A stretch of 63,022 nucleotides of DNA, filler included, from Sluysia triapertura (taxonomy: Eukaryota): assembly GCA_046118255.1 (NCBI GenBank). It is 5 parts of 5 records of this genome, joined end to end, with 100 filler letters (N's around TTAATTAATTAA, not from the genome) between each part and the next. Parts side by side here need not be neighbours in the genome. Positions count along the whole stretch, not along the records: positions 1 to 13,394 come from JBJNIA010042576.1; positions 13,495 to 27,607 come from JBJNIA010005666.1; 3 more parts are not named here. The stretch is one strand, 5' to 3'. The position numbers were made by a program, and so were the translations under genes. The notes beneath the pieces were generated by a model. That model did no database searches and had not been told where the DNA came from. It saw only the letters and a list, made by a program, of their open reading frames with translations. Position 1 is the first letter of the stretch. Every line of letters begins with the position of its first letter. Below, in pieces: positions 4,130 to 58,263 of this stretch.

Positions 4130-5110
4130 ATTTTAAAAACAATAATTTGAATAATGAAATAACAAGATTGAATTTTGTTATATTAACAAGAACAAAAGTT
4201 ATGTAAATATAAATAATGTTAATAAATGGTAAATAAATAATGGTATATAAATAATGTTAATAAATGAAGCTGGATCAGAATTAATAATTTCTGATTCAAT
4301 AGAAACAGAGTTAGAAATTAAAGGACTGTTTCTTTGAATAATTCGATTGTCCTTTTAAAAATGTAATTATACGATAAATTTGTAACATAACTTATTAAAA
4401 AATGAAAATTTTGGTTTTATTAAACTAACAGGTTTAGTTATTGTAAAGTTTTTGTGACACTGATATAAACCATATTGTAGCATTGTAAGTACCACATATA
4501 CATCATCTATGATAGAGGTTTTTAACTTGCTTCATTCGTTATGAATGCATTTATCCATATCTTGATTCCAATAGAACAAGTAATAATATTTATAATACAT
4601 GATACAAAAATGTATTGACATAATGTTGCCACTATACTCACATCGAATTTTACACTAACTTTAGTTGTTGAAATTATATCAAAAAACAGATTCGAAAATA
4701 TAAACATAGTATTCTGCAAACTAGATATTAAACAGAAATTTCGAATAAAATGCATATAAGTAGTTTCTAAATCTAATTCAACTAATTTGTTTCTTAATAC
4801 AAAATCATGTTTATATTATAAGTAAAAAAAGTTTCCATATGAAATAATATCCTACCAAATTTTGAGCTATTACTGCCATTATTAAGCTAATATTTAAATA
4901 AAATTGAGCCATTAAATCATGTTGTACATCATTTTAAAAAAATCCATACTATATTGATAATAATATTTAATTATAATATTAACATTTTAATTTGAAATTA
5001 TTTTCTAAATTTAAAAATGTTTTCTCATCATATATTTTGACTTTCCGTATAATTGTTAAATTTATTTAGCGGTATAATTTTCTTTCAACTCATACTAGAT
5101 CTAAATATAC
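4130..5110 (-). pseudogene. Decayed intronless accessory gene (coiled-coil plus hydrophobic segments), paralogue of 6120-6880 and 39830-40240
   Basis: 4980-5105 aligns with 6750-6875 (ELKENYT...KSK); contains the hydrophobic ORF 4522-4755. Confidence 0.45.
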
Positions 5111-6119
5111 ATTTTTGGCAAAAATAGATATACACAAAAATCGTGGTAGAAATAGTGTTAAATTACAGTTAACATAATGATTCTCAATGTCATTCAATGA
5201 ATCTTCTCCAATAAATTTCCTTACTAGCATTTGATAAATTTGCTAGAGATTATAGTTGGATATACATATGAGAAAAGTCAAATACCAGCTGAACAATTAA
5301 AATGAAACAGGAGAAAAACAATCATAAAAATCCTTTTCTGGCAAATGTTAAATATACGACTCAGTAGTTACAGGCGCAACATCTTCCATAACTAATCAAA
5401 TTTTAAAAGAAGAGATTATACAGTGAATAATACCTCATTTTGGAACTCTAACATCCATGGTAGTAGATGAGGTAGACCTATTAGGAAAATTAAGACATAA
5501 ATTTACTATCACAGAAAGAAGTGTACGATGTAATCCAAGGATTTTGATAAATTTTCCATACGATATGATAAAAAGAATATGTCGACCTTAATGAACACTA
5601 CTTGAAAACTATTCTATAACGATGCGAAAGAACGCAATGTTAGACTATGGGAATATTAAAACCAATTCTAGAAAAGGCACTACCACAGAAAAATCTCAGA
5701 TGCATTTAAATCTCTAGAGAAAATTCCAAAAATTTGTTGTTCATTCAAAACAGATTAAAGCAACTTTTAAATAAATATTTAAAAGAATTCCTGTGACATT
5801 AGAAGCGCTTTAGTGACAAGACGTGCAATTTCACTAACGGAAAATAAGCGTATTAAATTATTGTCATATTCATTACCGTTCTATCATACTCAGATAATGT
5901 AGTAACAAGTACAAAAGGGCTTTGTGCGCTTTAAATTTCTTGATTTATTTAAACGATGATAGAAAGTTTTATTATATTTTTTAATTTTGAATAAATTACA
6001 GAGTTTAATTTTAAAAGAAAGTTAGCCAAAATTTTTATCATTGTTACATTGAAATTCTTAACATATTTAATTTGGCTTTATAAACAAAAACTTTAAGCTT
6101 AATGCCTTTAACAAACATT

Positions 6120-6880
6120 AACAAATTAACCGAATAAACAAATAATTTTGTATAACAATAAAAACTAAACAAAAATGTTAACAATAAACGTGCATAAAAC
6201 GATTAATATAAAATTGTATCTCAAGTACTCATTATACTCGACATATGATAAATACAATTTTGGTAAGTACAATTTTTACACTTAACAGTTTTATTATTAT
6301 TATTATTATTAAGCCATGGTCTATTATGTTGCAAACTTTCATAAATTATAACTTGTAAAATATGTATGAAAATTGGAATCAAATTAGTAATCCCTCCACT
6401 AGACAATTTTAGAATATGATACGTCACTTTTATTATAATGAATGTTATGTAATAAATCACTCCAAATGCAAATTCGTATTTACAACAAAAATTAGTGAAT
6501 TCTGTGAAATCTAAACCACATACAAGTATATAATGAATAAAATTGAAAAAGAATCCATTTATAATATATTAATTTTGAATTATTTAACTTGTTTGTTCTA
6601 TGCGGATAAAATTCATGTGGTCCAGAAGCAATAACTTTATTAGCATACATTTTACTACTAAGTTACCAATATTGGTTATTTTTACAAAGGTTTTAATTAA
6701 TATCAATTTATTATATTAATAAACATTATGAAATTATTATATAAGTAATTTTAATTTTTGAAATTACTTTCTACGTTTATCCAATTTCTCTTTTAATTCA
6801 TGTTTTGACTTTTCGTATAATAATTGTTAAATTTATAAAATGGTATAATTTTCCTTCAGTTCATCGTGGATCTAAACATA
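6120..6880 (-). pseudogene. Decayed accessory gene downstream of an LTR-like end (7248)
   Basis: Reads IHDELKENYT..QLLYEKSKHELKEKLDKRRK*FQKLK then hydrophobic ORF 6221-6460; the reverse complement of 6670-6815 matches 40095-40240. Confidence 0.5.
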
Positions 6881-7262
6881 ACTAACAGAAATAAAAATAA
6901 AAATAATAGATATACAAGAAACGATAAATAAACATATATACCAAAAGAAAGCAAATGAACAAAAACAATCGTAACAATAATAGTAATAGTTACAACAGGA
7001 ACAACACCGGTTATCACAATAAAGGCATTATTATAACAATTTAGTATTATTATGACAATAGTTATTATTATTGCGATAATAATTATGATTATAATAATTG
7101 CATAATTCTAGTAATTATAAATTATTACGACTGTGTTTATATTTTGAATTTATCGAGTAACTTATTTAGCAATTTGTTTATGTGAGAAGTGTTGATTTGT
7201 GATGAAATGTGTTTATGATTGTGATGTGTAGATTTAGAGTTCACTACACAAACTATAAAAAA

Positions 7263-8277
7263 GTTGGAGTTATTCGTCCAAGTTTCTCACGCTGTTCCCC
7301 TCTAGTAGTAAAAAGAAGGACGTCTCTCTGAGGTTTTGTATAAATTTCAGTAAATTAAAGAAAGAAAGCAGAGAAGACTAATATTTGTTACCTCGTATTA
7401 GTGACATGTTCAATAAACATGGAATTTCCAAATATTTTACGACATTCGATTTACGGAATAGATATTGTTAAATTGTTTTATCAGAAAGAGGTGAACATCA
7501 AACTAGATTTTCTACCGAAGAATGGTTATTTGAATGTAGAAAAAGTCTTTTGACCTCAAAGGTTCATTTTTTACATTTCAGCAATAAATTAATTTTGATT
7601 TATCATTATGTCCACATATAATGGTACAAATAAGCGACATTATTATGTACGCTATAGATCTAGATATTCACTTTAAAGACATTGAAGAAGTTTTTATTTG
7701 ATTAGAAATTAAACCAACTAAATATGAATTGGCAAGAGAAAAGATCATATTTCTAGGACATGTGGTACATAAACACAGAATTTTACCAGACTCGATGAAA
7801 ACTGAAAAAGTTAAATTATTTTCAACACATACTAAAGAAAATTCATAAAAAATTCGCGATTATAGCAAAATCTCTAATCTACTTAACAAAGAAAGAATAC
7901 AATAATATTAATTAAAAATTTCATTTGGCATGATACGCATGAAAAGGCTGTTCAATCATTAAAAATAACGCTTACTATAACTCCCATTTTATGATTTTCA
8001 GATGTAAAAAACCTTCGTACTTATGACGGAAACCAGTGACCTTATCAGTGGTACTAACTACATTTAGAGGAATCGATAATGTTTTTTCGGATTATCAAAC
8101 AAGGTGGTCTGAAACTTTTCCTATGCAAGATCAAATAGCAGAAACTGTTACTTAATTACTTGAAGAAATTATACGTCAATATAGAACTCTTAAAAAATTA
8201 TTTAAGTATTAAAATTCTTAAGTATTATCAGAATACACACATCACCTTATCACCAATGCAGATGAGCTTGTGGAAAG
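7263..8277 (+). mobile_element. Degenerate, internally deleted Ty3/Gypsy pol (RT-RNaseH-integrase pieces)
   Basis: GVIRPSFS..SPLVV, KKDVSLRFCINFSKL, LPRISDMF, KYFTTFDLR, ISDIIMY (YLDD site), FLGHVV, WHDTHEKAVQSLK.TL, and an integrase remnant (TSPYH...DELVE) at the end. Confidence 0.85.
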
Positions 8278-9130
8278 TGTATTGACCAACCCAATAATTA
8301 AGAATTTTATTGCAATAACTTATAACAAAATCACTATCTAAAATCTTATCACAACGTCTTAAATCATTTCCATTTCATACTCTATGACATTAAAATTACA
8401 TAACATCAAATTCACATTCAATATCGAAAATCACCAAAGACCTACTTATGAAATTTTACTCAAAACACCGCAAACAAATTCACATTCCATAACTCTCCAT
8501 TCACCTTTCATTAAAACCTTTCCACATTTTATCTCTTCATACTCACTAGAACTATTCTCATTTTTATACATCTTGAAGTACAAATTTATTTTATCAAAAT
8601 AACCTTTACATCCAAAATCATCAATATATTTAAAATGCAGTTAAAACATTTTATTCATAGTCACATAACATTACAGTCATAAGAACATCCGTTAATATTC
8701 TATAACTATTTTTTAATATATCATAAGTGTTGCTATACTTTACTCATTTCATATCCACCAAATTAGTCTCATTTCTAAACCATCAATATACATTCATAAA
8801 TAAATTGTCAATATTCAAATTAGAATTCCTTACAAAACCTTTAACGCATATTTTAAAGTTAGTTTTAAAAGAAACATTTTATTTTACTTTCTCACATTAC
8901 TAGAATTTTAACTACACAAATTTATCAATCTTCAACATTGTATCCACATTTAGACCTCGTACCAACTTACTAACATTTTAAAATATGTTAAAAAAATATC
9001 TAAAATTTAAAGAAAGATTGTATTTTTCTTATTCATAAAAAGATTTATGCTTTCCTTTTTTATTCTCCGTATATTATCATTGGTTTATTTTATTCATCAT
9101 TATCATTATTATTTTGTTGTAATTAACATT
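8278..9130 (+). mobile_element. LTR-like sequence of the strand-biased TGTRGTGRCCAA family
   Basis: Starts TGTATTGACCAACC, ~700 bp strongly A/C-rich, conserved AAGATTTATGC motif at 9040 then an (ATT)-rich tract; relatives end at 7248, 14855, 17445, 33051 and 51939. Confidence 0.6.
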
Positions 9131-9543
9131 GTTTATTGCTAATTGTCAAATGGTAGTAGCTACCCTCATTATTCTTTATTATAGCTATTTAATGTGCCAT
9201 CAGTCGACAGACATTTAAAATCATTTTTTTTGTGTTACTTCATTAACAATCGACTGATGACAGTTAACCATGTTTTCATGTCATTCTATTGTGTTCAATA
9301 CTTCCACACTATCTGTTCTGATTGGTTAGCCAGTGACAGTACACAAATACAATTACAAAATTATTGCTAATTAATAAAAATAGTTTACGAAACTTAGTTT
9401 TTTAATAAACACAGTAAAAGGTATCTCATTGAAAAATATTCATCATGTTTTTATAAAAGAAGTTTATAAGGAGACGTAACATTTACTTAGCATAAAAAAT
9501 TTATCAATACTATTTTAACTTCTGTAATATTAAACAATCAAAA

Positions 9544-10744
9544 ATGTCGAATGATGCACTTGAAGAGAATGATGCACTTGAAGAATGTGGAAATTTTAAC
9601 GTTGACTCTTATGTAAAACTAACTAAAACGAAATATAAATGTCATGAGCTTGCTACAATTTTCAACTTGATTAATTCTGATAAGATTCTCAATAAAGTAA
9701 TTGTTGTTTTACCCATTATGTATACTGAAATGGAATATTTGCCAAAAGCAACTCATGTTGAGTTTATATCAGCTTCGTCGTTTTATGGTAAATGTAAAGA
9801 ATTCAAAAATGCCATGATCGTTACTTCTATGCCTACGTTGAGGAATATAATGAGTTACATTAATCACGTGAATGTAGTTATTAAAAATATGACACAACTT
9901 GCTGGACTGTACACCAAATCAAGTGATGGGTCTTTCTTTAGTGATGCATCTAATTTAAGTTTCGAGGTTATACATAAATCAACTTCATCTTTGTTTTTTT
10001 TCTGAGATCAATTGATGCTATTTTTACAAATCCTACTATGTTTTTATGTGACTGGTAATCATCTAAGAGGATTGTTAACTATGCTAAACAAGATACAAAA
10101 AGATATGGTTAAATATAGAAAAGATTCAACCTTTTGAGATTTTATTGATAGATTTGGAAGTAAAACTAATGCAAAATAAAATTGTACTAACTCTAGCATC
10201 TGAATCAAGCAGTGATGATAAAGATAAACATAAAATAAGTTTTAGGAATTCTCAAGTATTTCATTATACCAAATTAAGAAACAAATGAAGTACAAAAATT
10301 ATGTTTAGCAATTTGATTTTGGATCAATCAAGAAATATCAATTCACTTCGTCTAGAACAAGACTACAGTTCATCGAATTTCGAAGAGTGTTATAAATTGG
10401 CTCTCTGCTCTTATGAAGCTAATCAAGAAAACAAATGCTCAAAGTTTGGAACCAAATGCAAGGATTTATATACAATCAATGAACTACAAGAATGTAACAT
10501 CGACTATATGATCCGATCGTGACATTACATTAGACTAAACGATTTGTTTGCGAGTATTGGTAGTCAAATTACAAAGACTGCTGATGGCGCTACTACAACG
10601 CTACTTCAAGGCATTAATGCTGTCAGTAACAATAAAGTAATAGTTCATAGTGTTTGCATTGAACATATTTTATTTTTATATTTTTATTTAGACGAAGAAA
10701 CATGTTCTCAAACAAGGTGGCATAAATCGGGATCAATATTTTAA
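9544..10744 (+). pseudogene. Frameshifted intronless accessory gene with CCCH-like zinc finger (paralogue of 15245-16220)
   Basis: ORFs 9544-10005, 10301-10522 and 10544-10744 are collinear pieces; C-x9-C-x6-C-x3-(Y) at 10406-10471; AATAAA near 10758. Confidence 0.55.
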
Positions 10745-10949
10745 ATTTAAATTTTATAAATAAAACTAGTAAAACTAGATGTTATAATGCCTTATTTTTT
10801 AATTTGTTAAAAGTAATGATGATTCTCATAATTAACTTAATAAAGAAATGTTGTAATTACAATAAGTTTTTATAACGAATTTTAAAGAATCAAATTTAAC
10901 AATCACTTTTAGTTTAATAATTTCAAATGATTATAATTACTTTCTTATT

Positions 10950-12360
10950 GATAAAACATTACAGAAAGTTTTAACAATACTTTGTTAAATATAGTGAAAA
11001 TGTATGTCAAGTGGATACAAAGATATTAAACATTATCAATTTTCATATAAAAAATGCTTTTCGTTCCAAAAAGACACATTTTTATGTAATGTCCAAAAGC
11101 CATAACAGTGTGCCAATTGACTTAGATCGGTCAGAATCGCAATGCATGGATAGTCTAGATCAGGGATCGCAACATATGGCCCACGAAGGGATTTTGACAA
11201 GCTTATGAAGGTATTTGGCGGGTCTGTCAAATAACGATAATAAATTTAATAAACAAAAATTGTTTTAATATTCATTAAAATTCAATATTTAAATTAACCC
11301 ATGAATTCAAATATCAAAATGAAAATAAATATCAAAAATAAAAAATACAGAAATATTTATGAATATGATCAAAGATATGGATAATGAGTTCTCATCTCGT
11401 TTTATTGACTTTCGCTTGCACGATGATGAATTCAAGCTTCTTGCTATTTCTTTTGATGTGGAAGCGTGTACTGTATCAAAATGCTTTCAAATGGAGTTGA
11501 TTGAAATGCAATGTGACGACTTATTGAAATTAAAATTTCACTCCGACGATGTCTCTTTGCTTGATTTATTCTAATGGAAAGTATCCTAACCTAGTGAAAT
11601 TCGCAAAAAAAGATGACACATTTGTTTCGAAGTACTTACCAATGTGAGCAATTATTTTCAAAATTGAAATATACTAAAAACAATTTGAGAACAAGATTAA
11701 CCAATAGTAATTTGAATAATGTTTTGTTGATTGATACCAAATATTGAAAAGCTTTCAGGTGACAAAGAACATCAAGCTTCCAATTAATTATTCAAATTTT
11801 GGATTTTTGAATAGAAAGGATTTTTAAAATATCTTGTTTATTGTCAAATTACTTGCTTATTATTTGTAGAACTAAAATATTTTAAAGAATCTTCATTGCT
11901 TTATTCATTTTAAAAATGCTTTAGAAAAAAAGCTTTTTGATAAGCTTTTTCTTATAATATTTTTAAGAACCCTTCGGCTTGACACTCTCTCAAAAAACGA
12001 AATCCAGCCCCACTTAGCCAAATGTTGCCAATCCCTGGTCTAGATTATTCTGAAATATTAAAATCTCGATTAAACAATGCATGGATTAAAGCCGAATTAA
12101 ATATAAAACAAATACATGTAAGAAAACATAAATGGTACTATGGTAAGAAAACTAAAGCTCACAATTTTAGTAGGAGACAATTTTAATTTATAATTCAATT
12201 TCTTAAACTGATGGGACCATTTAAAGTACAATTTGAAGTGATCGATGTTACTATTCTATAAATACTTTCTATAAATTTAGAAATAAGGTTAAATAAAAAT
12301 AATACGAAAACTAAAATCATTCATAAAATTAGATATAAAATGACGGTAAAAATTACTATT
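10950..12360 (+). mobile_element. Gypsy integrase C-terminal remnant, interrupted by a hAT element
   Basis: TESFNNTLLNIVKMYV (ERFNRTL-like) before the hAT; LKSRLNNAWIKAELNIKQ..KWYY..KLMGPFKV (GPY/F motif) after it. Confidence 0.65.
11161..12037 (+). mobile_element. Non-autonomous hAT transposon (Buster/Charlie/SPIN, GTF2IRD2-like transposase C-terminus)
   Basis: TIRs CAGGGATCGCAACAT / ATGTTGCCAATCCCTG; perfect 8-bp TSD GTCTAGAT (11153-11160 and 12038-12045, central TA); remnant EFSSRFIDF..FQMELIEMQCDD..KYPNL..STYQCEQLFSKLKYTKNNLRTRLT (hAT dimerisation domain). Confidence 0.93.
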
Positions 12361-13394
12361 TATAATCTACAATCTCAAATAAACAGCAATAAAATATGTT
12401 TATTGCAAACAAACATTTCAATTTTATCATTTCGTATTATTTGGAATTAGCTAGTGCATATAAGAATCCCGGTAAAACTTTGTAGAACTAGCTTTGCGTA
12501 TTCTGTTCATTAAAGAATAATTTTCACATGTATTGCATTATTGTAAACTCTCGTGCATACATAACTTTAAAGTCGAATTTTGCCATAATAATATAGTTAT
12601 TAATTCTCATAAATGAAGTTTTTAAATACTTAAATTGTGATAAAAATGTAACCATCGCATCAGTAGTATATTATACTATGGTAACCCCATTTCTTTAATT
12701 TCTTACTCTTTTAGTGATTTTCTTGCTACTACTTTAAAAACAGTTTGACATTTTACGCATAACGAAAAAGAAAACAAACGATTACGATGGCGCCCACTAC
12801 ACAAGAAACAATTTTACTCTTGAGAAAACATAAAATTTTTCAAAACCATTCATTACATAAAACATCCAAAAAATCTAAACCATTGGTATAAATGAATTAC
12901 AACCTAAAGTCATTGCACATAGACACACTTTACAATTTTTCATTTCATATCCTTCTCACTTTTATACATTCAAGATAATGACATTCTTTGTGAATTTCTT
13001 TCAATCCGACTATTCGGAACAATAAAACCATTAATGAATAGAAAATCATTTTGCACTCAGAAAAATCAAAACCTACGCAAAATAAGTATATGTGACTTCT
13101 AGTATTCAAAACAGCTTAAATTAAAATATTTCTGAGGTAGAAAGAAGTTTACCATTTTCTTAAATATATTAATCTTTTGTAAACTAATAGCGTTTACAAC
13201 TAATAACAATTACAAACAAACTTCAACACAAATTATTAAACAAACTACTCAATATATATAAAACATAAACACAGTCATAATAATTTCATAATCATTAAAA
13301 TTTTGTTTATTATTATATTCGTTATATTATTATATTATAACGAATCTGTTATATATTATCGTTGTAACAATATCTCATTTATTGTTCTTCTGCT

Positions 13395-13494
13395 NNNNNN
13401 NNNNNNNNNNNNNNNNNNNNNNNNNNNNNNNNNNNNNNTTAATTAATTAANNNNNNNNNNNNNNNNNNNNNNNNNNNNNNNNNNNNNNNNNNNN
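13395..13494. other. Assembly gap with TTAATTAATTAA six-frame-stop spacer (also 27608-27707, 40573-40672, 51531-51630; plain N gap 52103-52273)
   Basis: Identical 100-bp N44-TTAATTAATTAA-N44 blocks. Confidence 0.97.
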
Positions 13495-14855
13495 TTGCAT
13501 CATAAATCACATATTCATCCACATCTTCCATTTTATTTAAATATCTTGGACATGATTTCTTAACTGATTTACTTACTAGATTTTCATGATTTTGGATCAT
13601 TATTAGTCTGGTTGTGAGCATCGTAACTTGTAAATAATTAACTGATAATTGTCTAGACGTTTTGTCTGGAATTTGTTTAATTTTGTCTAATTTTTAATTG
13701 AAAATTGTCTGAACTGCTAATTATCTGAAATTTGTTTTTTGAGTATAACAATCTATTGAGAATTGAGTCTAGACAGGAATTTTTAAATTGTGACTAAACA
13801 TATAATTTTTTAAGTGTGCTGAACAAAATCTTTTTTAATTGAGTTGCTAATTTTAACTAGTCTGCCAAATCAGAGTGTTTTAACGTTAATGAGAATAATT
13901 TGGACTCTGATTGGGCGATAATGAATTGATTTATATTTAACTGCAAACCATCATCAGTAGTGAGGTGCAAATGACTGAGATGAATGAGATGTCACTAATG
14001 ATGATGGTGACAACAAATTTTAATTTAAATCAATTTTTACAAAAATGATTAATAATAATAATAATACTAAAAACACTGTAATAATAATGATAATAATAAT
14101 AATAATGATGAAATTACTGTTATTATTATTATTACAAAACTTTTAATAAAAATAAAAGAAAAACGCATAAATCTTGCAAATCTTAGACATGAACTTTCTG
14201 TTATTCTTTATCTTTCTACATATATGAAATAAAAGGAATAAGACAAATGTTGTACTGTGAAGGAACAACAACTAAGTGTATGATGTATCGTTTGTGGTTG
14301 TTGCTTCACAGTATAATAATGAAATCTTTAAAGTTATTTGAAATTTAATTTGAAAATGTGAAATGGTTAAGGTTGCAAATGAAATGAAGAGTGTTAGAAT
14401 AATTTATTGAAACTTATTGAAACTTTATAATTTGAAACAAGATTTATACATTAAATTGAATGGTTTTAAATGCTTGTTGAAAGATTGAAGTTATTTTAAT
14501 TTTGAATGATGATTACAAAATAAGTCCTAGTATATTATAATGTTGTTACTGATAAGTATTAACGGTGAATATGTGTATGTGAAATGGGTTTGAGTTGGTG
14601 TGGTTGATTAAGGGTTTAGATGTAAATAACCTATGTTTCTGAAATAGTTGTTAGCGTTGTTTGAATGCTATTATATTTGTGAAATTTATACCGTGATTGT
14701 GATTATCGAATGTTGTATTTTGATGTTTGTGTTGGTGTATTTCGGAGGTAAAAGAAAATATGATTATTGTAAAGATTACGTTTTAGTGAAATTTGGTTTA
14801 TGTATATTAGATATGGTATTTTGATTGGGTTTGATTACGAGTGCTGATCACTACA
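13495..14855 (-). mobile_element. LTR-like end plus hairpin/CCAAT module plus start of a decayed orphan ORF, truncated by a gap
   Basis: Minus strand starts TGTAGTGATCAG, A/C-rich, AAGATTTATGCGTTT motif at ~14162-14176, hairpin 13947-14008, CCAAT inverted repeat 13864-13915, ORF remnant 13439-13621. Confidence 0.55.
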
Positions 14856-15244
14856 ATAAAAAATATAATTTATTAATGATTATACCCTTTAATTTGATTA
14901 TGACAAAAATATTTAATTATCACAAACGACATTTAATTTAAACAAAGTAATTTTAGGATATGACAGAAATATAACAACACTTAGTTTAATAATGAATTAA
15001 CTTTAAAATTATAACTTTTTAATAGCTAATAAAGTCACCATTCTTTACGATTTCAATAAATCTTAACTTTTGGTATAGTTATAGTTGAAAGATATGTTAT
15101 TTGTATTTTTATTTATAAAATGTTATAATTTTAATAAAGTTGTGATTAAAAACTTCCTTTATTGTATTTATATTATTATTAAATATTAACTCAAAATTTA
15201 AAATTTCATTATAAGCTATATTAACCATAAAACACATTGATGAA

Positions 15245-16220
15245 TTAAAGTTTTGGTATATAAACGTCTACTAGCCATGTTTTACTATCTGAAAAGATTT
15301 TAATAAAATCATTATCATTATCTAATATTAAATTAAATTTTACTTTATTAGAGTTTACATTATGATTGTTAGTTATAACTTCAGGAGTCGCCAACTTGAT
15401 GCTTTTAAATAGTTCCATGATTTGTCCATTGTTCATTCCGTTTTAGTATTCACATTTATTTCCATATTTTAAACAAACTCCTAAATCATTTGAAGAAAAT
15501 GGTCAGAAAGCAATGTCACTGATTGAATAATTCATTTTTATTTTAGCATTCTTGGACTTTATAATCTTTTTCATACACATGTAATTTATGGTCATTGTTA
15601 ATGACATTGGATCACTTTTAAATTTTTAATTTCTTTATTCATATTATCTTGATCACAGTTCATGTTTATCTGATGATCAAGAATCCAACTAATGTAAATT
15701 TTATAATATTTATAAAAATTATCAATTTTAATTTCTTTATAAACTTTTAAAATCATATTATTATATAATAATTTCACAATAAACATAGTATTATTTAGAA
15801 GAAGTTTTAGAAACATACTAATACTGTTTAAGTACTTATTGCCTTCAACATGACAATCAAAATAATGATTAACATGGTTACTATGTCTCAAGACTAGGCA
15901 TTCATTGGCTTGATAAAATTGCAGAAGAATGTTTTTACTTCTGCTGAGAGCATCCGAATTTCCTTGTTCGGCTTGAGGCGAGACTCCATCACCAAAAGAA
16001 TCTCTATCGATCATTGGTGACACTTCTTTAAGCACCATCATTAAAATTTTATCGGTTGCTAATTCTAATCCTAAATGTCTCAAAAATTCAACACGATGTT
16101 GATAAACCATTACTGATGATAATACATCAGTTATATTAGTTGAGCCAACAATATTTTCATCAGTATACAAGCCAACAAAATCCTCTTCAGCTAGACTCAA
16201 CACGATTTTGCATAATTTTG
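15245..16220 (-). pseudogene. Decayed intronless accessory gene with CCCH-like zinc finger (paralogue of 9544-10744)
   Basis: ORFs 15598-16203 and 15245-15436; between them *-x9-C-x6-C-x3-(N) at 15440-15505; shares DKIL, NHVN, E(K/Q)DY and NKV motifs in the same order as the 9544 gene. Confidence 0.55.
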
Positions 16221-16599
16221 ATCATAATTAATTACAAATTATTTTACCACGTTCAAATTTTTCCACTTTTATTTTTATTCTTTTTTGAGAAATATATATT
16301 TTTTGAATTATAAATTATTAATTTTTTGGCAACTTTTGTTATTACTCACTTTACTGATTGGTTATCCAACCAAATTTTCGAAATAATATTTTTGCACAAA
16401 TGATTTTGGTTGGATAACCAATGCAATCTGAGTATTAATTTTATCAAGCCAAAATAATCCAATTGAAGTAATCAACTGTGATGACTACCACCATCACCAG
16501 TGACTGCATAATTGTAAATGTAAAACAAAGTGTCACTGCTGATGATGCCGATAACACGACTGATTTTAGTCTACATGATTTTAATTTCATTTATACATG

Positions 16600-16810
16600 A
16601 TGATAATGATAATGATTAAATAGTAATAATAACAACAATAATAATATTATTATTATTAAAAATGAAAACGCATAATTTCTTGATTTATAGATCTTTATAT
16701 GTTACACATGATCTTTTCTTTATCTTGACTCTTTTCTCGACATATTTGGCCTACTCTAAATCTAAGATCTGTACTTAACTTCTTAAAAATTGCCTTGAAA
16801 AAGTGATTAC

Positions 16811-16856
<46 letters not shown>

Positions 16857-17445
16857 TAATAGAAGTGTAATCATTATTATTATTTCAATAAAATTGCATG
16901 ATTTTCTTGCTTTTAAACGTTATACAAGACCTTTCTTTGTTTGTTTTATGTTACTTAACATATCTAGGTTGTAGAAATGAAGAGATTTTTCGGTTTTGTG
17001 AATTTAAAGCGATAAGGTTTTTCTTTGTGACTTTACCTTCTTTTATATAATTGTTACTGGTATTCTGGCTGAAATAATTTTATTGTCTGAAGAATTATTA
17101 ATGCATAGATAGTTTTAAAACGAAAGCCTAGAATAAGGTTGATGTTAGAATGAGTAATGATGGTGTTTCGTTGTGAATGTTGATGTAATTAGGTTTTTTG
17201 GAATGGAAAGATGGAGAAATAAAATATTTTGAATTAAGATTTAATATGTTTTGATGGTTTGGAGCATTACTTTAGTTGGATATTGTGAGGTGTTGTGTAA
17301 GTGTTCTAGATGTATTTCTAGTTATGAGTTGATGGTGTTTTTTTATGAATTGACAGATTTGCGGTATATTAAGAAATAAATTTTTGTTTTGTGAATTTAT
17401 GATATTTTAATATATTTTGTTAAAGTTATATGTTTGGCCACCACA
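16600..17445 (-). mobile_element. LTR-like sequence of the strand-biased family
   Basis: Minus strand starts TGTGGTGGCCAAAC, A/C-rich, AAGAAA(T/A)T(T/C)ATGC-like motifs at ~16670 and ~16896, (AAT)n tracts. Confidence 0.55.
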
Positions 17446-18719
17446 TTACTAACTACTAAGTTTTAGCTAAATAGATTTTTCATCTTCTCAGGCTGATTTC
17501 TTTCCAAGCAGAAAGAATGACTGCTTTCAAATCCTTTACATTCGATAAACCTTCCGAACGAGTAAACCCAGGGTTTCTCAATGGGATGGCCAACTCAAAA
17601 CCCGAATTTGGTTATCTTAAAACCATTTTGTTGTCTCTTCGGAACAATGGATTGAACAATTGTCTTGTTGGAAGATCCAGTTTCGGCCTCTAATTTGACC
17701 TGCGACGAGGATGAGGAAGTCATTGAGTGTTTGAATATACTTCTGTGAGTTTTGTTTACTGTCTAAGAACACAGTTTCTTTTTTCCCATTCCAACCAAAG
17801 CCTGCCCAGACTATCACCGAAACACTTCCAAATCCATGTTTTTTGAAGTACTCCGGACTCTTCTTCAGGTCATGCCAGTAAAACTGACATCCATCGGGGC
17901 CATCAAGATTAAATTTTTTCTCGTCTCTGAATATAATTTGGTGTCATTTTAAAATTCATGATATGTACAATTGTGCCCATGTGACCCGTGCAGACTTTTG
18001 CACTGCTGTGAGTTTTGGTTTGGGCTTCCTCTTCTCATATCTTAAGTATTGGCAGTTGCCTACAACCCTTTGGACAGTTCTTATTGAACAAAGAAGCTGA
18101 TGGACCAATTTAATATGTTTTGGAGACATTTTTATCAGTGACGTCACGAAGAATGATCCTTTTGTCTCTCGATGTCAACTTTGGTTTCCGCCATCTTATT
18201 TTCTTGCCATAATTCTCGGGATCTTGAAGAAAGTGAGTGATTGTGCTTGCATCTCTGTTAATGCGACATCAACTTTCTCTTATTCCCAAATTTGTATCTC
18301 TATAGGCCGAAATTGGTCCAATTTCAATAGGTAATAATTGTTTCCCCTTTGGCAATTTAAAACAATTTTATTTGTCAAAATTTTTTAATTAAATATAAAA
18401 TAACTAACAAAAAATTATTTAAATAGAATATATTAAATAAAATTAATTACCTTTATTGACTAAAATTGACTAATTAATTAATGTATTAGTTAATTTTGTT
18501 ATAATTTTGTTATAATTAATGGTGTTATAATTTTGTCACATGTAAAAATCACATTTTAATTTTTAATTCAAATATGGCGCAGTAATTAGGTATTTATTTT
18601 AATAATATTTTACTTGTTTTCATACATGCTTCTAATAATAACATCAGAAATAAATATCATTAATAATTAATTAAAATAAAACAAAAAAACCACCGTTGTT
18701 ATATACCTGTTGTCCACTG
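17446..18719 (-). mobile_element. Tc1/mariner (Tc3-like) DNA transposon, degenerate
   Basis: TA-CAGTGG terminus at 18719-18721; transposase remnants LPKGKQL.., KPKLTAVQKSARVTWA, IFRDEKKFNLDGPDG, MIVWAGF, WIFQQDNCSIH. Confidence 0.9.
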
Positions 18720-20816: not shown

Positions 20817-21079
20817 TGTGGTGATTCAAACCCTCATATATTACAATCACAAAAGAAATAAAGCTACTAAATAAACAACAAACTTGCATTTTAAAATTAC
20901 TTTTGCTTACTACTATCACTAATGCTATTTAATTATTTAATTATTATTAATTTCTATTATATTTTATTGTTAATCATATCATTAATATTATTATTGTTAT
21001 TACTACCATTATTATTATTATCATTATTATTATTAACTTAAATATTATTTATTTATATTATTATCACTATTATCAATAC

Positions 21080-21118
<39 letters not shown>

Positions 21119-24100
21119 TACTATTATATTTATTTATAATAAAAATACAAAATAAATTAATTAAAATAAACTTAAATTGGTTTCAGGACAAAATAATTTT
21201 TGGTTACTCAAATCAATTTTTATGCTATGTTTGTATGATTAGTCATAATGACCGTCGACATGGTACTAATAATAATTACACGATACTCTTAATATTAATT
21301 CACTTAAATTTATAAACTATTTTCGAAACTCTTCAATATCTAGAGATTACCGTTAGTCTGACACCATAAAACTTTTGCTTATTAAAGTTTTCCACTTTAC
21401 TTAGCTTTATGCCTCCTGCTTCTACAAATATTCATAATAACTGTAAAATATGTAAAATATTTTAAAAACTTTTTAAAATTAAATGACACAATTCAACAAA
21501 TCACCAAATTTCCATTTCAACATACGTAATCACCTTTAATCTTTTCAAAATCTCTAACCAACCTCTCAAACATTATTATCCACAATTGTAATAACCTCAC
21601 CTTCATATTCACTCAAACCACATCAGTCACATATATAAACTAAACGTACAATATAAAACACATTCCAAAACCACCTAATAAAATCCTCATTCATACTATG
21701 ACAACTAAATTCCAAATAAGTTCCATTAATAATAAGCACAAATTCAACACCACACGCAACAAAACTACATTTTACTTCAGATGAAGGTCCAGAATTTCCA
21801 AAATAGATACCTTTCCACCTACAGCATCAATGAAGAAACAAATTCTCGTGATACAAAATCCTAAAAATCACCTCTAAAATTAAAAATACCAACATTAACG
21901 TCTTTCACACTATCCAAACGACAAAACCGGCATCCTCCATTTATCTTTTCACAAGAATGTTTGGTTCTTGCATAATTCTCAACCTCTTCGTAGCAGTCGC
22001 ACCTTCCACAACATTTTCTACCCGGTAGTAGTAGAAACCCTACAGACATTAACATAGAGAATAAACTAGATAATGCACAATCTTAAATTAATGCCACAAT
22101 ACTCTTACCATTTTTTCCTCGATAATAGTAGTACTCCCAACACTTGGTGTATCGTTGAAGCAGATCTTAAAACACGTGAAATAAAGGAATTCTGCAGCGT
22201 ACTTTTTCCATTTAGGCCACAAATCCTTAAGAAAAAAGATGGTTCTATCAGGACATGCGGTGACTGTCGAATGCTAAATAATCCGTGCTGCTTCTTACCG
22301 ATATTTTACACCGTTTTCGCGACTACGTATATCGACGCCATCATAGTCGCGTCAAAAAATGTAACATATAGTGATCATCTGAACAAAATTTCCCAAAGAC
22401 TTGCGGACAATAAACATACTAAAACCGAAGAAATAAACATACAGGCGAAGATTGCATCTCTAGACCTAACATCTCTGCTGACGACACTGAACCTTTGCCA
22501 AGCCGCATAGAGTCCATAAGGAACTTTTCGCAACCTCTAACTGATATCCAAATGTTAAGCTATTTACCCAGACTTTTTCAAACGCTATCTCAAGTAATTA
22601 AATGGACCGAAACCTCATTACAAGCTTTCCAAGAGATTAAGGGTTCTATTGCCCAGATGCAAGATTTGGCCTTTCCATTTCCAGACATTCATCCATAACT
22701 AACTATTAACGCATCAAACACGGCATTAGATGTTGTTCACATCAAATCAAAATGACGTTCCCATACCCACAAAATTATATTCCTATAAGATACTCTGCTT
22801 TTGTTTGCGAACTCTTGTATATTTTCAATAATACACTACAGATATTTACTGATACCAGCGAAGTTTATCTTCAGGACTAACCGCAAGCCCTTGTTCACTT
22901 TTTCCATCGCCACAATAAGGGCACATTAGTTTTGATATTTAACACACCTGGGACACGAAAACGTGGTTGCCGACATGGTTATCACGGGTAAAGATTAATA
23001 GCATTAAGGTTTCACAATGGAAGATCTTCCTGGTAATCCCACTTCTGCCGAATATATTAACGTTTTAGAATAACAGCATTACTACGTGAAAGTATCTACA
23101 TCGATCATCAGCTTTTAGGAATTTCATGTCCAACCTCAGCTTTCGAATACATACATAACACAACACACCGTGGAGCTAAAGCTACGTATCAATTACTGCA
23201 TTTCAAGATCGTGTGGCCTTTTATGCACAAAGACTGCTTAACTTGTTAGTTCGTCAAGATTGTACGACATACAACATTGTCATTTACCCACAGGCCATTT
23301 ATATGGATATCTTTGATATCCTTCCATAGCATAGATTTTGAGTCTGAACTATTTAACAGTTTATTAAAACATCTGGGAAGTTATAGACTCAGAGCTACCG
23401 CCTATTACTCACAATCTAGCGGGATTATAAAACGATTCCTTAGAACGCGAGAAACCTCTCTGCGTTCCATTTCTTTTAAATTCTACCATTAATATTACTG
23501 GTATGGAGAAATATCAACAGTATCAACACTAAGATGTCCAACGAGGTATTTTCTCCGCATCTTCGAGAATATTTCTTCAACCTTGATGCGGTGCCAGCTC
23601 ATAACGATTCCTTACGTCTTTTTTGTCCTAAAGGAATTGCCGACAAAAGAATATGTTTGATTAACGCACGAAAATCCAACTTCTTTACAACTACGTTACT
23701 CGGGTCCCAATAAGGTTCTTAAAATATATTCCGACAACCAAACAGCAACTATTTCTGTCATAGGGCACTCGTGGACGGTAAACTGGTGCAAATTAAAGCC
23801 AGCACGACAACCAACTCACTCATTCACGTCTGTTTATCACATCGGCTTCATTCAATGATGCCCAACAATAATAAAATACAAGTTACAACAACAGATCAAA
23901 TTCATAGTAAACATTCAAGTTACAGTCCCATATTAATCATTTTGTCCTGCGTTTCAAAGGGGGTTGTGTGACGATTCAATAGAAATAAATAAATAACTAC
24001 TAAATAAACAACAAACTTACATTCAATTATCCATCATCTTACTTATTACAACTTTTACTATTACTATTTTTACTTACTAATATATTACTGCTATAACTAT

Positions 24101-24180
24101 TTCTAATTATTATAATTAGAATAATTATATTAATTATAATAATAATTATTAATTTCTCTTGTATTCTATTATCAATATTA
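20817..24180 (+). mobile_element. Two-LTR Ty3/Gypsy retrotransposon, heavily deleted and degenerate
   Basis: 5' LTR ~20817-21247 (TGTGGTGATTCAA...GTCATA) and 3' LTR from ~23968 (TGTGACGATTCAA) share CTACTAAATAAACAACAAACTT; PPT AAAGGGGG before the 3' LTR; pol motifs KKDGSIRTCGDCRMLN, YIDAIIVAS, WTETSLQAFQEIK, INASNTA, YSAF..ELL, GHENVVAD, H..HRGAKAT..VWP..C..C, FESELF..TAYYSQSSGIIKRF. Confidence 0.88.
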
Positions 24181-24185
24181 TTATT

Positions 24186-24250
<65 letters not shown>
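24180..24250. repeat. (CAT)n microsatellite; (AAT)n tracts also at ~16812, 21080, 27538, 45232, 52470, 53739, 59232
   Basis: Directly visible trinucleotide runs. Confidence 0.95.
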
Positions 24251-27607: not shown

Positions 27608-28099
27608 NNNNNNNNNNNNNNNNNNNNNNNNNNNNNNNNNNNNNNNNNNNNTTAATTAATTAANNNNNNNNNNNNNNNNNNNNNNNNNNNNNNNNNNNNN
27701 NNNNNNNTAAATTTCATATCAACATCAACAATTCAGCATTAATAAACATAATAACCACGTTATTGTTATCATTATTATTTCTTTATCCTTATCAATCTTT
27801 CCTTCTATTCTTTTGTTTTTCCCCAATACTACACAATATATTGACCTCTTATAATTTATAAAACAATATTGATTGATAAATAATGGAAGAATTATATTAC
27901 AATAAGAAATCATCATAACGAAACGTAACCTTAATTGATTATCAAATGAAACTTAATGATGGGCTTTATTCAACACAATCACCAAAAATAGATAAAAATA
28001 CTGATTCAAAACACACAGAAATCATACTTATTTAGAATGTGACAATACAATTTACTACAATTTACAATTTAATACATTTGCAACTGTTATGATACAACA

Positions 28100-29811: not shown

Positions 29812-30618
29812 ATGGACTTTACTAAGGAACCCAAAACTTTGGAAACTGAATATGTTCATAAAGTTTATGATTCTATTGCAGAACATTTTAGTGAAACTCG
29901 ACATTCAATGTGGCCCAAAGTACGGCAATTTATTGAACATCAGTTCTTCTCTGATGACGATTCTAGGAAATACTTGATTTGTGCTGATTTTGGTTGCGGG
30001 AATGGAAAATATTTGGCCGGTAATTGGAGTAAATATTGCTTATGGTTAACAAGTGATCCTTGTTTTGGATTTTGTGATATAGTTCGTCAAAAATATGATC
30101 AATTTCCTTTTATTGACCCAGTTCAAACTTCATTGTTACAATTACCTTATTGTAAAAAAGGAATTTGTGATTTCTGGATTAATATTGCAGTGTTACATCA
30201 TCTTAGTACCGAACAAAGGCGATTAAAAGCATTGAAAAATATGGTAGAGATGCTTAAGATTGGTGGATGTGGATTAATATATGTTTGGGCTAAAGAGCAA
30301 AAAAGAGGCAATGAAAAATCACACTACATATCGATTAATAAAAATGAAACAAAATTTGAGTGTGTTACTGGACTTGCAAATTCAATAGATCAGTTACAAA
30401 TTCATCAAAATAGAACAGAATTTGCTGCAACTGATATGTTAGTGCCTTGGAATAAAAAATGTAGCGATGAACTATTTGTAAGATACTATCATTTGTTTAT
30501 CGAAGGTGAATTAGAAAATCTATGTCGACAAGTTAATGGCGTGCAAGTTTGTGACTCATGGTATGATTCCGGTAATTGGGCAGTAATTATTAAACGAATG
30601 GAAGTATTAAATATTTAA
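29812..30618 (+). CDS. ALKBH8: tRNA wobble-uridine (mcm5U) methyltransferase, ALKBH8/Trm9-type methyltransferase domain
   Basis: LETEYVHKVYDSIAEHFSETRHSMWP, ADFGCGNGKY (SAM motif I), IAVLHHLST..RRLKAL, LIYVWAKEQ, IHQNRTEF..DMLVPW, RYYHLFIEGELE, GNWAVI; ATG at 29812, TTTAG acceptor at 29794-29798. Confidence 0.9.
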   Translation: MDFTKEPKTLETEYVHKVYDSIAEHFSETRHSMWPKVRQFIEHQFFSDDDSRKYLICADFGCGNGKYLAGNWSKYCLWLTSDPCFGFCDIVRQKYDQFPFIDPVQTSLLQLPYCKKGICDFWINIAVLHHLSTEQRRLKALKNMVEMLKIGGCGLIYVWAKEQKRGNEKSHYISINKNETKFECVTGLANSIDQLQIHQNRTEFAATDMLVPWNKKCSDELFVRYYHLFIEGELENLCRQVNGVQVCDSWYDSGNWAVIIKRMEVLNI

Positions 30619-31449
30619 ATAAATATAATTTTTACTATGTTTTGTTTTGCCTAATTTTTTATAATAATTTTACGAGCTAAATTTTAAAAAATTAATTGAT
30701 ATTTATTTTTTTTTGTATCTAGTGATTTTTGTTTTTTTATTAATTAGCGTGCTAAATTTAAATTAAATTATCTGAAAAATGCAAGTAATAATATTTTACA
30801 TATTTTGTAATAATTAGGAAGACATTCATGTTACAAAGGAAGATCAAGAACGTATTAATACTTTTGCTAAACATTCAATAAAGATTAAAGAGTATAAAGA
30901 AGAATTTAATTTTTTGTTTTAATATTATAAATTATTTCAATGATGTATGAATTTTGAATCTTGACAAAATTTTCTTTTAAAAATGTTGATAATTAGTGAT
31001 GCAAAAGTCGGAAAGACATTAATTGTAACCCATTATATCCACGACACATTTCAAGATCATCCACGCACATGGAATGACTAAAGAAACTCTAAAAATCGTT
31101 GCAGTCTTAATCGAAGATCCTACAAGCCATATTTGGGGATCAACTTTAAATGTAGCCAGTTCTACTTTCGCAATCAAGAAAACCTCAGATTTAAATTTTA
31201 AAAATCAAATGCTGAACTCTGTTTATGATGAATTGGATGTTACTAGAGCCTTGCAGAATGGAGAAGTGTTCAATTTCTCTGATATCGTATTGAAATTATT
31301 ATATTTTGATATTGTTATCCACTTTATCATTAAGTTGAAGATAATTCAACACCTAGTACTGAGCAATGATAGCTCTAGTCCAAAGAGATGTTTACGCTAC
31401 TTAATTTTTAAAGTTAATCGAATGTATAAGCTTATTCATTTTAGTTATG

Positions 31450-33051
31450 TGGGCGATTTGGACAGGAATATTGTTTGCTCAGTACCAAGAGCGAGTTCGT
31501 AGGGTTAAAAACTAGCGATGTGAAATTTTGTTCGAATTTTTGGTTTTTGATTGTCACCGAAGTATGTTTGTTTATGTCGCGTATGTTGAGAGTATGATGC
31601 GTTACTGCCTTGACAAATTTATTCGTATGATGTATTTTCATGTCAGCCTAGAATTTTGGAATGATTCTCTTATTGTTATGCCTTGTCGTGCATGTGCAAG
31701 ATTCACTTGCGAATTCAAAATTGAGGCACAATTTAAGGTTGGAAGTTTAGATACAATGGATAATTATAACACGCGTATCCATAATTTGGTACATCGACAT
31801 GAAAGTTTTCATAATTTTGAAATCTGTTCCGCGTACGTTGTTGTATATGCTTGGTTAGAAGTTTTTATCGTGTTTGAGCCTGGTGAGATAACTTTTGTCG
31901 TTCAAAATGCTGGAAAGAGTGGAAGCTTAAGAGCGATATTCTATAGTCTCACGGTTGATAGTGAATGTAAGTTTTGTACTATTATACATGTTCAATGTTT
32001 TAATGTGTTAACAATCCTTGCCGGTCTTTTTTTATGTGCGTATAATACAAATTTTTCATGTGCCTTAAGCACCGATTTTGTCATAATTATAGATTTTATG
32101 TAGATCAAACCCGTTGTAACAGTGCGTGTAACAAAAATAACAACGGTAAACTTAAACTCCTAAACGATAAGATTTAACCACAATAATTATTATATACGCA
32201 TACATTTCTTCGTTTCTTCTGAATCCACAAAATCTTTCCTTCTTTCTCTTGAACAATTCTTAACATATTTGGCACTGAATGCAATAACAATAATAAGATG
32301 AGCAATATTAAAGTTATTGTTGTTATTACATTGAATAAACTTTTGGACTCTTTAAAAACTGTACACAATCTTCCTTTAACTCAAAATAATTTCTGAACAT
32401 ATTGAGCTGCATATAAATATGTTTAAGGCTAAAATCTTCATGTACAGATTAATCTAAGTAAATTTTGCATGTGGCTTAACATTTCAAGGTGTGGTAATGA
32501 TTTTTGCAGTATAAAGAATTGGTGAATGCTAGAATGAATGTTTTGATGGTGATTTAAGTTCATAATTGTGAGTAATATTTGAATGTTGGAAGATTGTGAC
32601 TGTAAGATGTGTGGTGTGATTTAGAAAATGTGGAAAGATAAATTATAGTGCGACTCCTATTATATTTGGAAAGTTATTGTGCAATGTTTTATGTGATTTG
32701 TTTTCTTGTTGTTTTTAAGTGTTATGGCCTTTTGTTTTGATGATTATGTGATGACAAATGATGAATTTAATGTGTTATAATTGATTCGAAGGTGTAAAGT
32801 GGATAACTACAAAAATGGTTATTATTTGATTGTTGAGAATGTCAGATGACATGATTTTTTGATGCCTTAGTTGATGTAAATTTGTGGTATTAAATGTAAT
32901 TGTGATTTGATGTTGTGGAATTGTGGATATGAATGATTTGGGTAGGTGAAGTGTTTTGTGAGTACGGTAAAGATATATATGTGTAAATATTAAAGTGTTT
33001 AAGAATTATTTTTTATATGAAATTTGATAATATTAAAGGTTGGTCACCACA
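31450..33051 (-). mobile_element. LTR (~32128-33051) followed by a strongly decayed Gypsy RNaseH/integrase remnant
   Basis: LTR starts TGTGGTGACCAACC and aligns with 51780-51939; minus-strand fragments KFVLY.HK, PARI, IEYR, DTRVII, LAHARQGI, PYELALG occur in pol order. Confidence 0.5.
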
Positions 33052-46863: not shown

Positions 46864-46995
46864 TGTTTAGGATATAGGCCCAAGCTGCTATTTGGTGTAA
46901 TTGAATAAAGTAATATAAAAATTGTTAGCTCAGTGGGTACAGCATCGAGAGGTCCCGGGTTGATTCTCGGTCAGTCCATTTTATGAAGTCTAACA
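46864..46995 (+). mobile_element. tRNA-containing short LTR-like unit (copy A)
   Basis: TGTT...TAGCTCAGTGG (A box)...GAGGTCCCGGGTTGATTCTCGG (B box)...CCATTTTATGAAGTCTAACA. Confidence 0.7.
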
Positions 46996-52468: not shown

Positions 52469-52500
52469 ATAATAATAACATTAATAATAATAATAATAAC

Positions 52501-58224: not shown

Positions 58225-58263
58225 AATTTATTTTTTCAAAACGATTAATAGTGAAAAGTGCTT

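Follow-up and report, generated by a model that had tools for sequence, protein, structure and literature searches.

The stretch of DNA analyzed here (the window; 63,022 nucleotides from five records of the Sluysia triapertura assembly GCA_046118255.1, a gapped draft with a GC content of about 24%) contains a family of mobile units of the long terminal repeat (LTR) type, in which a promoter-like block stands ahead of a variable cargo, as an earlier sequence-only reading of the same DNA had correctly recognized. One copy, unit 1, is a complete unit with TG...CA ends, bounded by a target-site duplication (TSD), and not a fragment. Its cargo combines the front part of the host protein WASHC4 with a stretch weakly resembling a zinc finger. 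On balance, we favor the interpretation that unit 1 is the solo LTR of a Gypsy family whose long LTRs hold a promoter together with a captured, exchangeable host cDNA. Coordinates of the features are compiled in Table 1.

Six of the seven terminal bases of unit 1 are inverted with respect to each other, and the 5-bp duplication GAAAG is present at both flanks. Fifteen candidate starts were tried; position 8278 gave this duplication together with an inverted end at 10963, and not at 10760, where the sequence-only reading had placed it. Since the duplication test is weak on its own, continuity of the interrupted integrase served as an independent test. The reference integrase (L002) was taken from a motif scan of IMG/VR (20 loci, four with long frames, one read as Gypsy pol). 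The 15 reference residues due after the break found their best position at exactly 10964 (rank 1 of 125,950, score 37, next 26), and the 8 residues before the break ranked 17 of 125,992, at 8252. Both junctions are spanned by contigs of DNA run X1, in which 71% of the sampled words of 7249–13390 are present; its contigs were also used for depth and variants. The two halves of unit 1 matched each other neither directly nor in inverted orientation (24 and 14 of 100 shuffles scored as well); a control LTR pair (starts 20817 and 23967) exceeded all 100 shuffles in the same test. In unit 1, frame scans and self-comparison detected neither gag/pol nor an LTR pair nor long inverted ends. The duplication, the integrase continuity, the bridged junctions, and the lack of a self-match thus define a bounded unit without an LTR pair, and not the remnant of a terminal region that had been assumed before.

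A complete, TSD-bounded unit without an LTR pair, and with no LTR-paired parent found in the window, might also be expected if non-autonomous units moved as DNA, with short TGT...ACA ends, a Gypsy-integrase-like transposase (Ginger2/Tdd-like or undescribed), and Pack-style capture of host sequence. In the available part of PMC2836005, Ginger ends resemble Gypsy ends, and Ginger1 and Ginger2/Tdd share with unit 1 the TGT ends, duplications of 4–5 bp, and host-like extra domains. According to the same text, duplications measure 4 bp in Ginger1 and Ginger2 (CCGG/CCGT or within RTATAY) and 5 bp in TDD-4/5, so GAAAG matches the length of TDD alone. However, the inverted repeats described there are 40–270 bp long and accompany a transposase, whereas unit 1 has nothing longer than its six of seven bases, and no transposase was found. 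The asymmetric promoter-like layout and the intron-free sense cargo also suit an LTR better, and we regard movement as DNA as rather unlikely.

The front of the cargo is open over 9544–10002 and is then broken by two frameshifts and a stop. This open reading frame (ORF) matches Pfam WASH-4_N (E 1.4e-10 / 7e-11; 41.8 bits vs a curated cut-off of 25), and a protein library of 1.84 billion representatives returned only three matches, all of them WASHC4 (WASH-4_N) proteins with 28–32% identity. By tblastn, the homology extends to ~10186 / residue ~256. It contains no intron, because about 216 codons of DNA cover about 222 reference residues. The ORF, previously regarded as an orphan, therefore represents the front ~250 residues of host WASHC4; it is no spliced single-copy host gene next to which a transposable element happens to lie. 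In the cargo rear, two stops occur where 15 are expected, and an Unkempt-type CCCH finger is weakly matched (zf-CCCH_UNK, E 0.006 and 0.0014) but has no support in PDB. Codon use of the cargo is host-like. No virus match was obtained for the cargo of units 1 and 3 in PHROGs, of unit 3 in IMG/VR, or of unit 1 in metagenome contigs; the only cargo that can be named, WASHC4 with its weak finger match, is derived from the host, in contrast to the virus-like gene supposed before.

Related copies of the unit 1 cargo exist and were amplified as a unit. At two cargo positions, 18 and 19 contigs of run X1 carry another letter than the window, and one contig spans the WASHC4/finger join; over 422 bases, it shows 76 differences but a single gap. 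Summed contig depth is 311–425 over 9650–10649, in the cargo region, vs 30–47 over 12150–12899. Of the 81 indels in the cargo, the 12 with the best support include two that are 3 bases long and in frame. These variants and indels hint at frame constraint between copies. Such constraint and the host-like codon use could also reflect a non-mobile host zinc-finger gene family, spread by promoter-bearing segmental duplications with retrocopies landing inside. This is hardly tenable, given that unit 1 has integrase-type ends and a target duplication and lies inside an integrase, and that unit 3 starts in a Tc1 transposase; for unit 1, the idea is contradicted.

The terminus of unit 1 recurs in the window. 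The pattern TGTRKTGRCCAA, i.e. the terminus motif of the sequence-only reading widened at one letter so that unit 1 fits, was found at four exact sites (8278+, 17445−, 33051−, and 51939−; 0.05 expected). The start of unit 2 (14855−) has two mismatches to the original motif, a level at which 14 matches occur vs 8.3 expected; the motif was thus confirmed for the exact sites but is near chance level for unit 2. A G-poor, C-rich leader is present in units 1, 2, 3, 6, and 7; over the initial 600 nt, its G and C contents are 5–7% and 20–23% in units 1, 2, 3, and 6. The long A/C-biased tract reported earlier (~600–750 bp) was recovered as a G-poor leader of ~600–700 nt in units 1, 2, and 6, but of only ~400 nt in unit 3, and the G-poor stretch measures only 100–200 nt in the units at 7248 and 39540. 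In local alignments between units (55 pairs, 12 composition-keeping shuffles each, hence rough z-values), we obtained z = 6.2 for units 1 and 3, 9.6 for units 2 and 3, and 3.2–5.4 for unit 6 vs units 1–3. Contig depth was higher over the leader (3425 at 8400–8649) and the hairpin (567) than over the cargo, which fits a leader common to subfamilies with other cargo, although low complexity may inflate depth.

The 11-mer AAGAWWTATGC, pointed out in the sequence-only reading, is by itself at chance level (12 found vs 12.4 expected at one mismatch), but it forms the end of a purine-rich block of ~80 nt common to the units, with one copy in units 1 and 2 and two copies in units 3 and 6. Leave-one-out profiles recovered unit 3 from units 1 and 2 (E 0.003) and unit 2 from units 1 and 3 (E 0.21); the profile from units 2 and 3 did not recover unit 1. 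The three-unit profile next matched, always on the sense strand, the second copy in unit 3 and both copies in unit 6. Presumably, the block is an enhancer-like repeat. Tandem enhancer repeats occur in retroviral U3 regions, and the doubled block of units 3 and 6 resembles them. A different assignment, as a purine tract preceding a hidden 3′ LTR, was rejected, as the downstream sequence is unlike the terminus.

Downstream of the block, the CATCA inverted repeats described earlier were found in all of units 1, 2, and 3, with folding z-values of −2.4 (9195–9262), −3.4 (14008–13947), and −3.6 (16547–16489). A second inverted repeat uses the CCAAT boxes as arms in unit 2 (13916–13864, z = −3.8) and unit 3 (16422–16357, z = −7.9); in unit 1, a second hairpin was not significant (z = +0.3). 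Unit 2 has a third, upstream repeat not listed before (14313–14253, minus strand, 20-bp arms, z = −4.2). The arms vary among units, and the spacers measure 27–30 nt in four of the six repeats. Of the 97 stem pairs, 90 are Watson-Crick, one is G-U, and one is A-C, with no excess of G-U. Selection at the RNA level was rejected, the stem pairs showing no strand asymmetry, and Rfam gave no match to any known RNA family, miRNAs included, over 5900–17800 at E up to 1. The repeats probably act as paired factor-binding sites on DNA; a role as RNA hairpins is unlikely, and an origin as mere by-products more unlikely still.

Measured from the terminus of units 1, 2, and 3, respectively, the offsets are 700, 625, and 692 for the block, 917, 847, and 898 for the first repeat, 1043, 939, and 1023 for CCAAT, and 1266, 1324, and about 1224 for the cargo. 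The claim of one layout in three units holds for leader, block, CATCA repeats, and CCAAT; several details differ, namely the end of unit 1, its ORF, and the cargo of unit 2. These spacings also bear on the possibility that unit 1 is a collapsed classical LTR retrocopy, in which a host cDNA lay between a 5′ and a 3′ LTR and the repeated parts were later deleted. The available text of Tan et al. 2016 (PMC5131818) documents such a mechanism in animals, including two-gene chimeras. We nevertheless consider it very improbable here: no trace of a direct repeat remains between the halves although the 5-bp duplication is still perfect, and independent deletions would not yield the nearly equal block, hairpin, CCAAT, and cargo spacing of units 1 and 3.

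The cargo of the other members is less informative. In unit 2, to which an intronless orphan ORF had been ascribed, only 12 codons are visible from the ATG (13531) to the gap. The spacer before this ATG holds the only two copies in the window of GTCTAGAC, which we take to be a SMAD-binding palindrome, at 13651–13658 and 13767–13774 (116 bp apart; 2 vs 0.21 expected, a number reached by 4 of 100 shuffles), with several AGAC repeats around. The 207-codon frame of unit 3 has a chance of 3e-9 of being open. No match to it was found in the word-based homolog search, PDB, PHROGs, or IMG/VR; the best value in the atlas was 0.79, Pfam matched parts of it weakly (P2RX7_C, E 0.04–0.05; DUF7832, E 0.018), and its single-sequence fold (pLDDT 33) was unusable. 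The word-based search also returned nothing for the ORF of unit 1 (longer proteins only) or the pol piece, and exact look-up of eight window proteins gave no match (0/8). Apart from unit 1 itself, a post-hoc pattern of its finger matched the window only at the finger-like stretch of unit 3 (pairwise E 0.002). In unit 6, the CATCA hairpin is absent. A far end of unit 3 near 14890 was rejected (alignment score 103 vs a shuffle maximum of 112), as was an extent of 6.7 kb for unit 6, where the 4-bp match at 26376 is expected by chance.

Unit 1 and unit 4 both lie in a decayed Gypsy pol (Ty3 reverse transcriptase, E 2e-7; RT_RNaseH_2, E 0.04; tblastn with L002), which the sequence-only reading had counted as part of the units. 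This pol is an insertion target interrupted by unit 4 and, at a single codon of the integrase, by unit 1, just as a Tc1 remnant (DDE_3, E 0.0015; HTH_Tnp_Tc3_2, E 1e-4) is cut by unit 3; therefore, pol gives no link to a parent. The same reading had seen in the units fragments of giant, Burro-like Gypsy elements whose end drives virus-like accessory genes, the nearby pol included. In its available part, PMC6431247 implies LTRs of at least 2.5 kb for Burro, whose internal region reaches up to 25 kb in a total of >30 kb and which also carries host-like domains including ankyrin; unit 5 contains an ankyrin-like scrap (Ank, E 0.15, not significant), and the unit 3 ORF lacks a database identity. 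Against this stand the split pol, the completeness of unit 1, the host origin of its cargo, and the location of the Burro extras, which that text places in the internal polyprotein or ORFs and not in the LTR. Scans of 181 stop-free and 51 read-through frames gave no match to gag, env, BIR, BCL2, or MATH, and the gapped window revealed nothing significant for the giant polyprotein (gag, MATH, BCL2, BIR, ankyrin, env, and pol) of a >30-kb Burro element. Neither a giant element nor the Burro domain set is apparent in the window, and we judge this origin quite unlikely. A giant parent as such is compatible with a solo LTR of 2.7 kb, the size implied for Burro; virus-like cargo and a link to pol are not.

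If unit 1 is a solo LTR with captured cDNA, its first ~1.2 kb would represent U3, comprising the G-poor leader, the enhancer-like block once or twice, the inverted repeats, and the CCAAT boxes. During minus-strand synthesis, the reverse transcriptase, while copying the LTR portion of the element RNA, would jump to a host mRNA and then return, so that a sense-orientation cDNA would end up within the LTR, upstream of a finger-coding segment already resident there. An LTR modified in this way would be copied to both ends and spread with the element, and recombination between LTRs would leave a self-contained cassette of promoter and chimeric gene. Separate capture events would lead to different front halves, as in unit 3. 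The parent presumably had paired LTRs, the cargo would have lost its introns by passing through mRNA, and a transcription start and expression are predicted; the copies in the window are now dead. The available part of PMC5131818 describes, for animal LTR elements, template switching onto mRNA as well as chimeras of two genes and subsequent amplification.

More tentatively, the units may belong to an undescribed Gypsy lineage in which the LTR serves as an exon-shuffling expression cassette, pieces of different host mRNAs being exchanged at one slot of the LTR, in frame and upstream of an Unkempt-type RNA-binding finger that stays in place, with expression driven by the LTR enhancer and the paired CCAAT boxes. 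Captures would then be copied with the element, remain under reading-frame selection for a time, and be scattered as solo LTRs, i.e. as ready-made chimeric genes, whose products could be dominant-negative or RNA-tethering variants of host proteins, WASHC4 for example, that act to the benefit of the element. A gene in such a capture slot would be duplicated in each round, would keep its promoter, and would survive the solo-LTR recombination that deletes the genes of the element, so that new chimeric genes could arise efficiently by this route. At its boldest, this view has the cassette move by itself, without an internal region.

Several points weigh against the interpretation of unit 1 as a cargo-bearing solo LTR. 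By chance, 86 of 2323 TGT starts (3.7%) pass the duplication test, and 15 starts were tried; the integrase test has a single reference; and run X1 may be the source sample of the window. Far ends with inverted terminus and duplication were searched for in units 2, 3, 5, 6, and 7, and none was found. The similarity between units 1 and 2 is weak (z = 2.0). The finger of unit 1 lies below the curated Pfam cut-off (19 vs 31.1 bits) and is a resemblance only, while the finger-like stretch of unit 3, without a Pfam match, is only suggestive. The intron-free status was judged against a reference protein, with the host's own WASHC4 gene outside the comparison, which bears on intron loss and on junction microhomology. 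Summed contig depth is not a copy number. A paired copy around a primer-binding site and an internal region was not found in the window, and in PMC5131818, as far as its available text goes, the cDNA takes the place of the internal region, flanked by two LTRs, and does not lie inside one LTR.

Table 1 Coordinates of the units, their parts, their targets, and neighboring features in the window
Feature	Position	Strand	Basis or remark
Unit 1, complete 2686-bp TGT...ACA insertion, solo-LTR-like	8278–10963	+	TSD, termini, split integrase, contigs
Left TSD, GAAAG	8273–8277	+	
Right TSD, GAAAG	10964–10968	+	
Unit 1 leader, G-poor and C-rich	8278–8970	+	composition
Unit 1 copy of ~80-nt purine-rich block	8978–9063	+	profile; ends TTATGC
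Unit 1 CATCA inverted repeat, 13-bp arms, 42-nt spacer	9195–9262	+	folding
Unit 1 inverted CCAAT box, degenerate partner	9320–9334	+	sequence, motif scan
Unit 1 cargo front, intron-free WASHC4 (WASH complex subunit 4), residues ~1–256	9544–10186	+	Pfam WASH-4_N, tblastn
Unit 1 cargo rear, in frame of last WASHC4 piece, two stops	10190–10741	+	weak finger match ~10390–10470
Unit 2, terminus, leader, (ATT)n, ATG at 13531	13496–14855	−	cut by gap
Unit 2 block	14230–14152	−	
Unit 2 inverted repeats	14313–14253, 14008–13947, 13916–13864	−	
Unit 3, terminus, leader, (ATT)n, cargo	15248–17445	−	
Unit 3 blocks	16965–16888, 16753–16658	−	
Unit 3 inverted repeats	16547–16489, 16422–16357 (CCAAT arms)	−	
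Unit 3 cargo, 207-codon open frame	15598–16221	−	host-like codon pattern
Unit 3 broken, partial finger-like stretch	15440–15510	−	weak; resembles unit 1 finger
Unit 4, high-copy TGTAGT...ACTACA repeat, about 1351 bp	5898–7248	−	
Unit 5, decayed terminus, ankyrin-like scrap	39540–40240	+	
Unit 6, exact terminus, leader, two blocks	32150–33051	−	missed by the sequence-only reading
Unit 7, exact terminus, leader related to unit 6	51631–51939	−	cut by gap; missed by the sequence-only reading
Decayed Gypsy pol (reverse transcriptase, RNase H linker, integrase)	7249–8277	+	target of units 1 and 4
Integrase continuation past unit 1	10964–11030	+	rank 1/125,950
Tc1/mariner transposase remnant	17446–18545	−	truncated by unit 3 terminus
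Compact decayed Gypsy, paired LTRs (starts 20817, 23967), purine tract before 3′ LTR, pol	20817–24250	+	
LRR-Ig membrane protein, 586 aa, intact, intron-free	60421–62181	+	ordinary host gene
MatE transporter exon	62273–62980	−	ordinary host gene

The units at 7248 and 39540, to which a related layout had been ascribed, lack the block and the hairpins and represent a different repeat. Unit 4 starts at 7248(−) in the reverse transcriptase of the pol split by unit 1, in opposite orientation, and its first six bases are inverted at the ends; at 7248, 121 contigs depart with unlike flanks. Its other end most likely lies at 5898, where an inverted TGTAGT end meets pol-like sequence, judging from motif and translation alone, as the pol piece to the left has no database support. 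No target duplication is preserved in unit 4, and its ORF has no match in the atlas. Units 4 and 5 have 147 bp in common at 88%. A high-copy segment of ~150 bp occurs with differing flanks in these two units and at a third site (4947–5109, 6668–6880, and 40092–40235), and at 6795 in unit 4, 64 contigs depart with a common alternative continuation, indicative of a second mosaic LTR-like family.

Further repeats surround the units. The tail of the target integrase of unit 1 contains a third nested insertion, a high-copy hAT-like remnant (11260–11960; Dimer_Tnp_hAT, E 0.036; depth 1200–2000). One G-poor leader near 12783 (+) carries TGGCGCCCA at 12788 after a purine-rich run, a candidate for either a primer-binding site or a decayed terminus; another near 13178 (+) is homologous to the start of unit 4 (z = 11) and runs into the gap (13394). 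For the Tc1 target of unit 3, the second terminal repeat was not found. The 5′ LTR of the pol-bearing compact Gypsy and unit 6 both begin with TGTGGTGA; the units and this LTR pair have their first bases alone in common. At 54205–54628, a Tc1/mariner-like miniature element of ~420 bp with CAGTGGTGG(C/T)CAAA inverted ends resembles the unit terminus by chance, and a short tRNA-like repeat is present in three copies (70–79%; 46876–47013, 52309–52469, and 58263–58410).

A chain of host-type pieces (29812–32100, plus strand) converges on unit 6. It comprises (i) an intact, intron-free methyltransferase of 268 aa (Methyltransf_11, E 3e-8); (ii) an exon near 30824 that we take to be prefoldin-4-like; (iii) a Ras/Roc P-loop scrap (~30980–31060, E 0.0008–0.001); and (iv) two open frames, 157 and 195 codons in length, whose codon use resembles that of the host. 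For the region behind unit 6, no support was obtained for a primase. Host-type genes of the window, i.e. the LRR-Ig membrane protein, the MatE transporter, and the methyltransferase, are surrounded by decayed transposons. Gaps of 100 bases, filled with the spacer TTAATTAATTAA, lie at 13395–13494, 27608–27707, 40573–40672, and 51531–51630, and order and distance across them are uncertain; units 2, 5, and 7 are each cut by one.

Among known systems, U3 regions of retroviruses also bear genes or RNA cassettes, e.g. MMTV sag, the overlap of lentiviral nef, and the miRNA hairpins of foamy viruses. By analogy, unit 1 may be likened to these in having an expressed unit within the LTR that is duplicated with it, tandem enhancers, and paired hairpins; here, however, the cargo is an exchangeable host fragment, the element is a non-retroviral one from an invertebrate, and expression is predicted. 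TRIM and LARD elements have paired terminal direct repeats around a non-coding interior, which are absent in unit 1. In the available part of PMC6431247, planarian Burro (GYPSM1) and plant Ogre (LTRs of 1.9–6.5 kb) resemble the family in their long LTRs and in the host-like domains carried on Gypsy elements, but these domains reside in internal polyproteins or ORFs, and neither WASHC4 nor an Unkempt finger is listed there. An assignment of unit 1 to Burro, Ogre, Ginger, or TRIM is not demonstrated. The available parts of PMC8532177 and PMC11410931 added nothing on LTR structure, and in the literature outside subscription journals and Repbase reports we found no host-gene cargo inside an invertebrate solo LTR, although a description may exist.

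Gene capture by LTR elements is known, yet with the cargo between two LTRs. The LTR-mediated chimeric retrocopies described in the available text of Tan et al. 2016 (PMC5131818) are alike in that they contain a partial, sense host piece, intron-free in unit 1 as far as the comparison with the reference protein shows, form two-source chimeras, and exist in more than one genomic copy; there, the cDNA lies between a 5′ and a 3′ LTR, whereas unit 1 is one TSD-bounded unit with its own CCAAT block and no paired repeat. Its nesting in pol is datable, and with both ends and the duplication in hand, the family can now be treated as an element of defined extent and is thereby accessible to searches and tests. 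The solo LTR is the simplest class that combines TG...CA ends with a few inverted bases and a 5-bp duplication while lacking an enzyme. A duplication of the solo-LTR type (4–6 bp) was found for unit 1 alone and for none of the other units. With the Ty3/Gypsy solo LTR, unit 1 shares three of four class features, the fourth being a paired occurrence of the same sequence elsewhere, around a primer-binding site, an internal region, and a purine tract; it has in common the TG...CA ends, the inverted termini of a few bases, the 5-bp duplication, the lack of gag/pol, and the nesting, but is unusually long (2.7 kb) and about half protein-coding.

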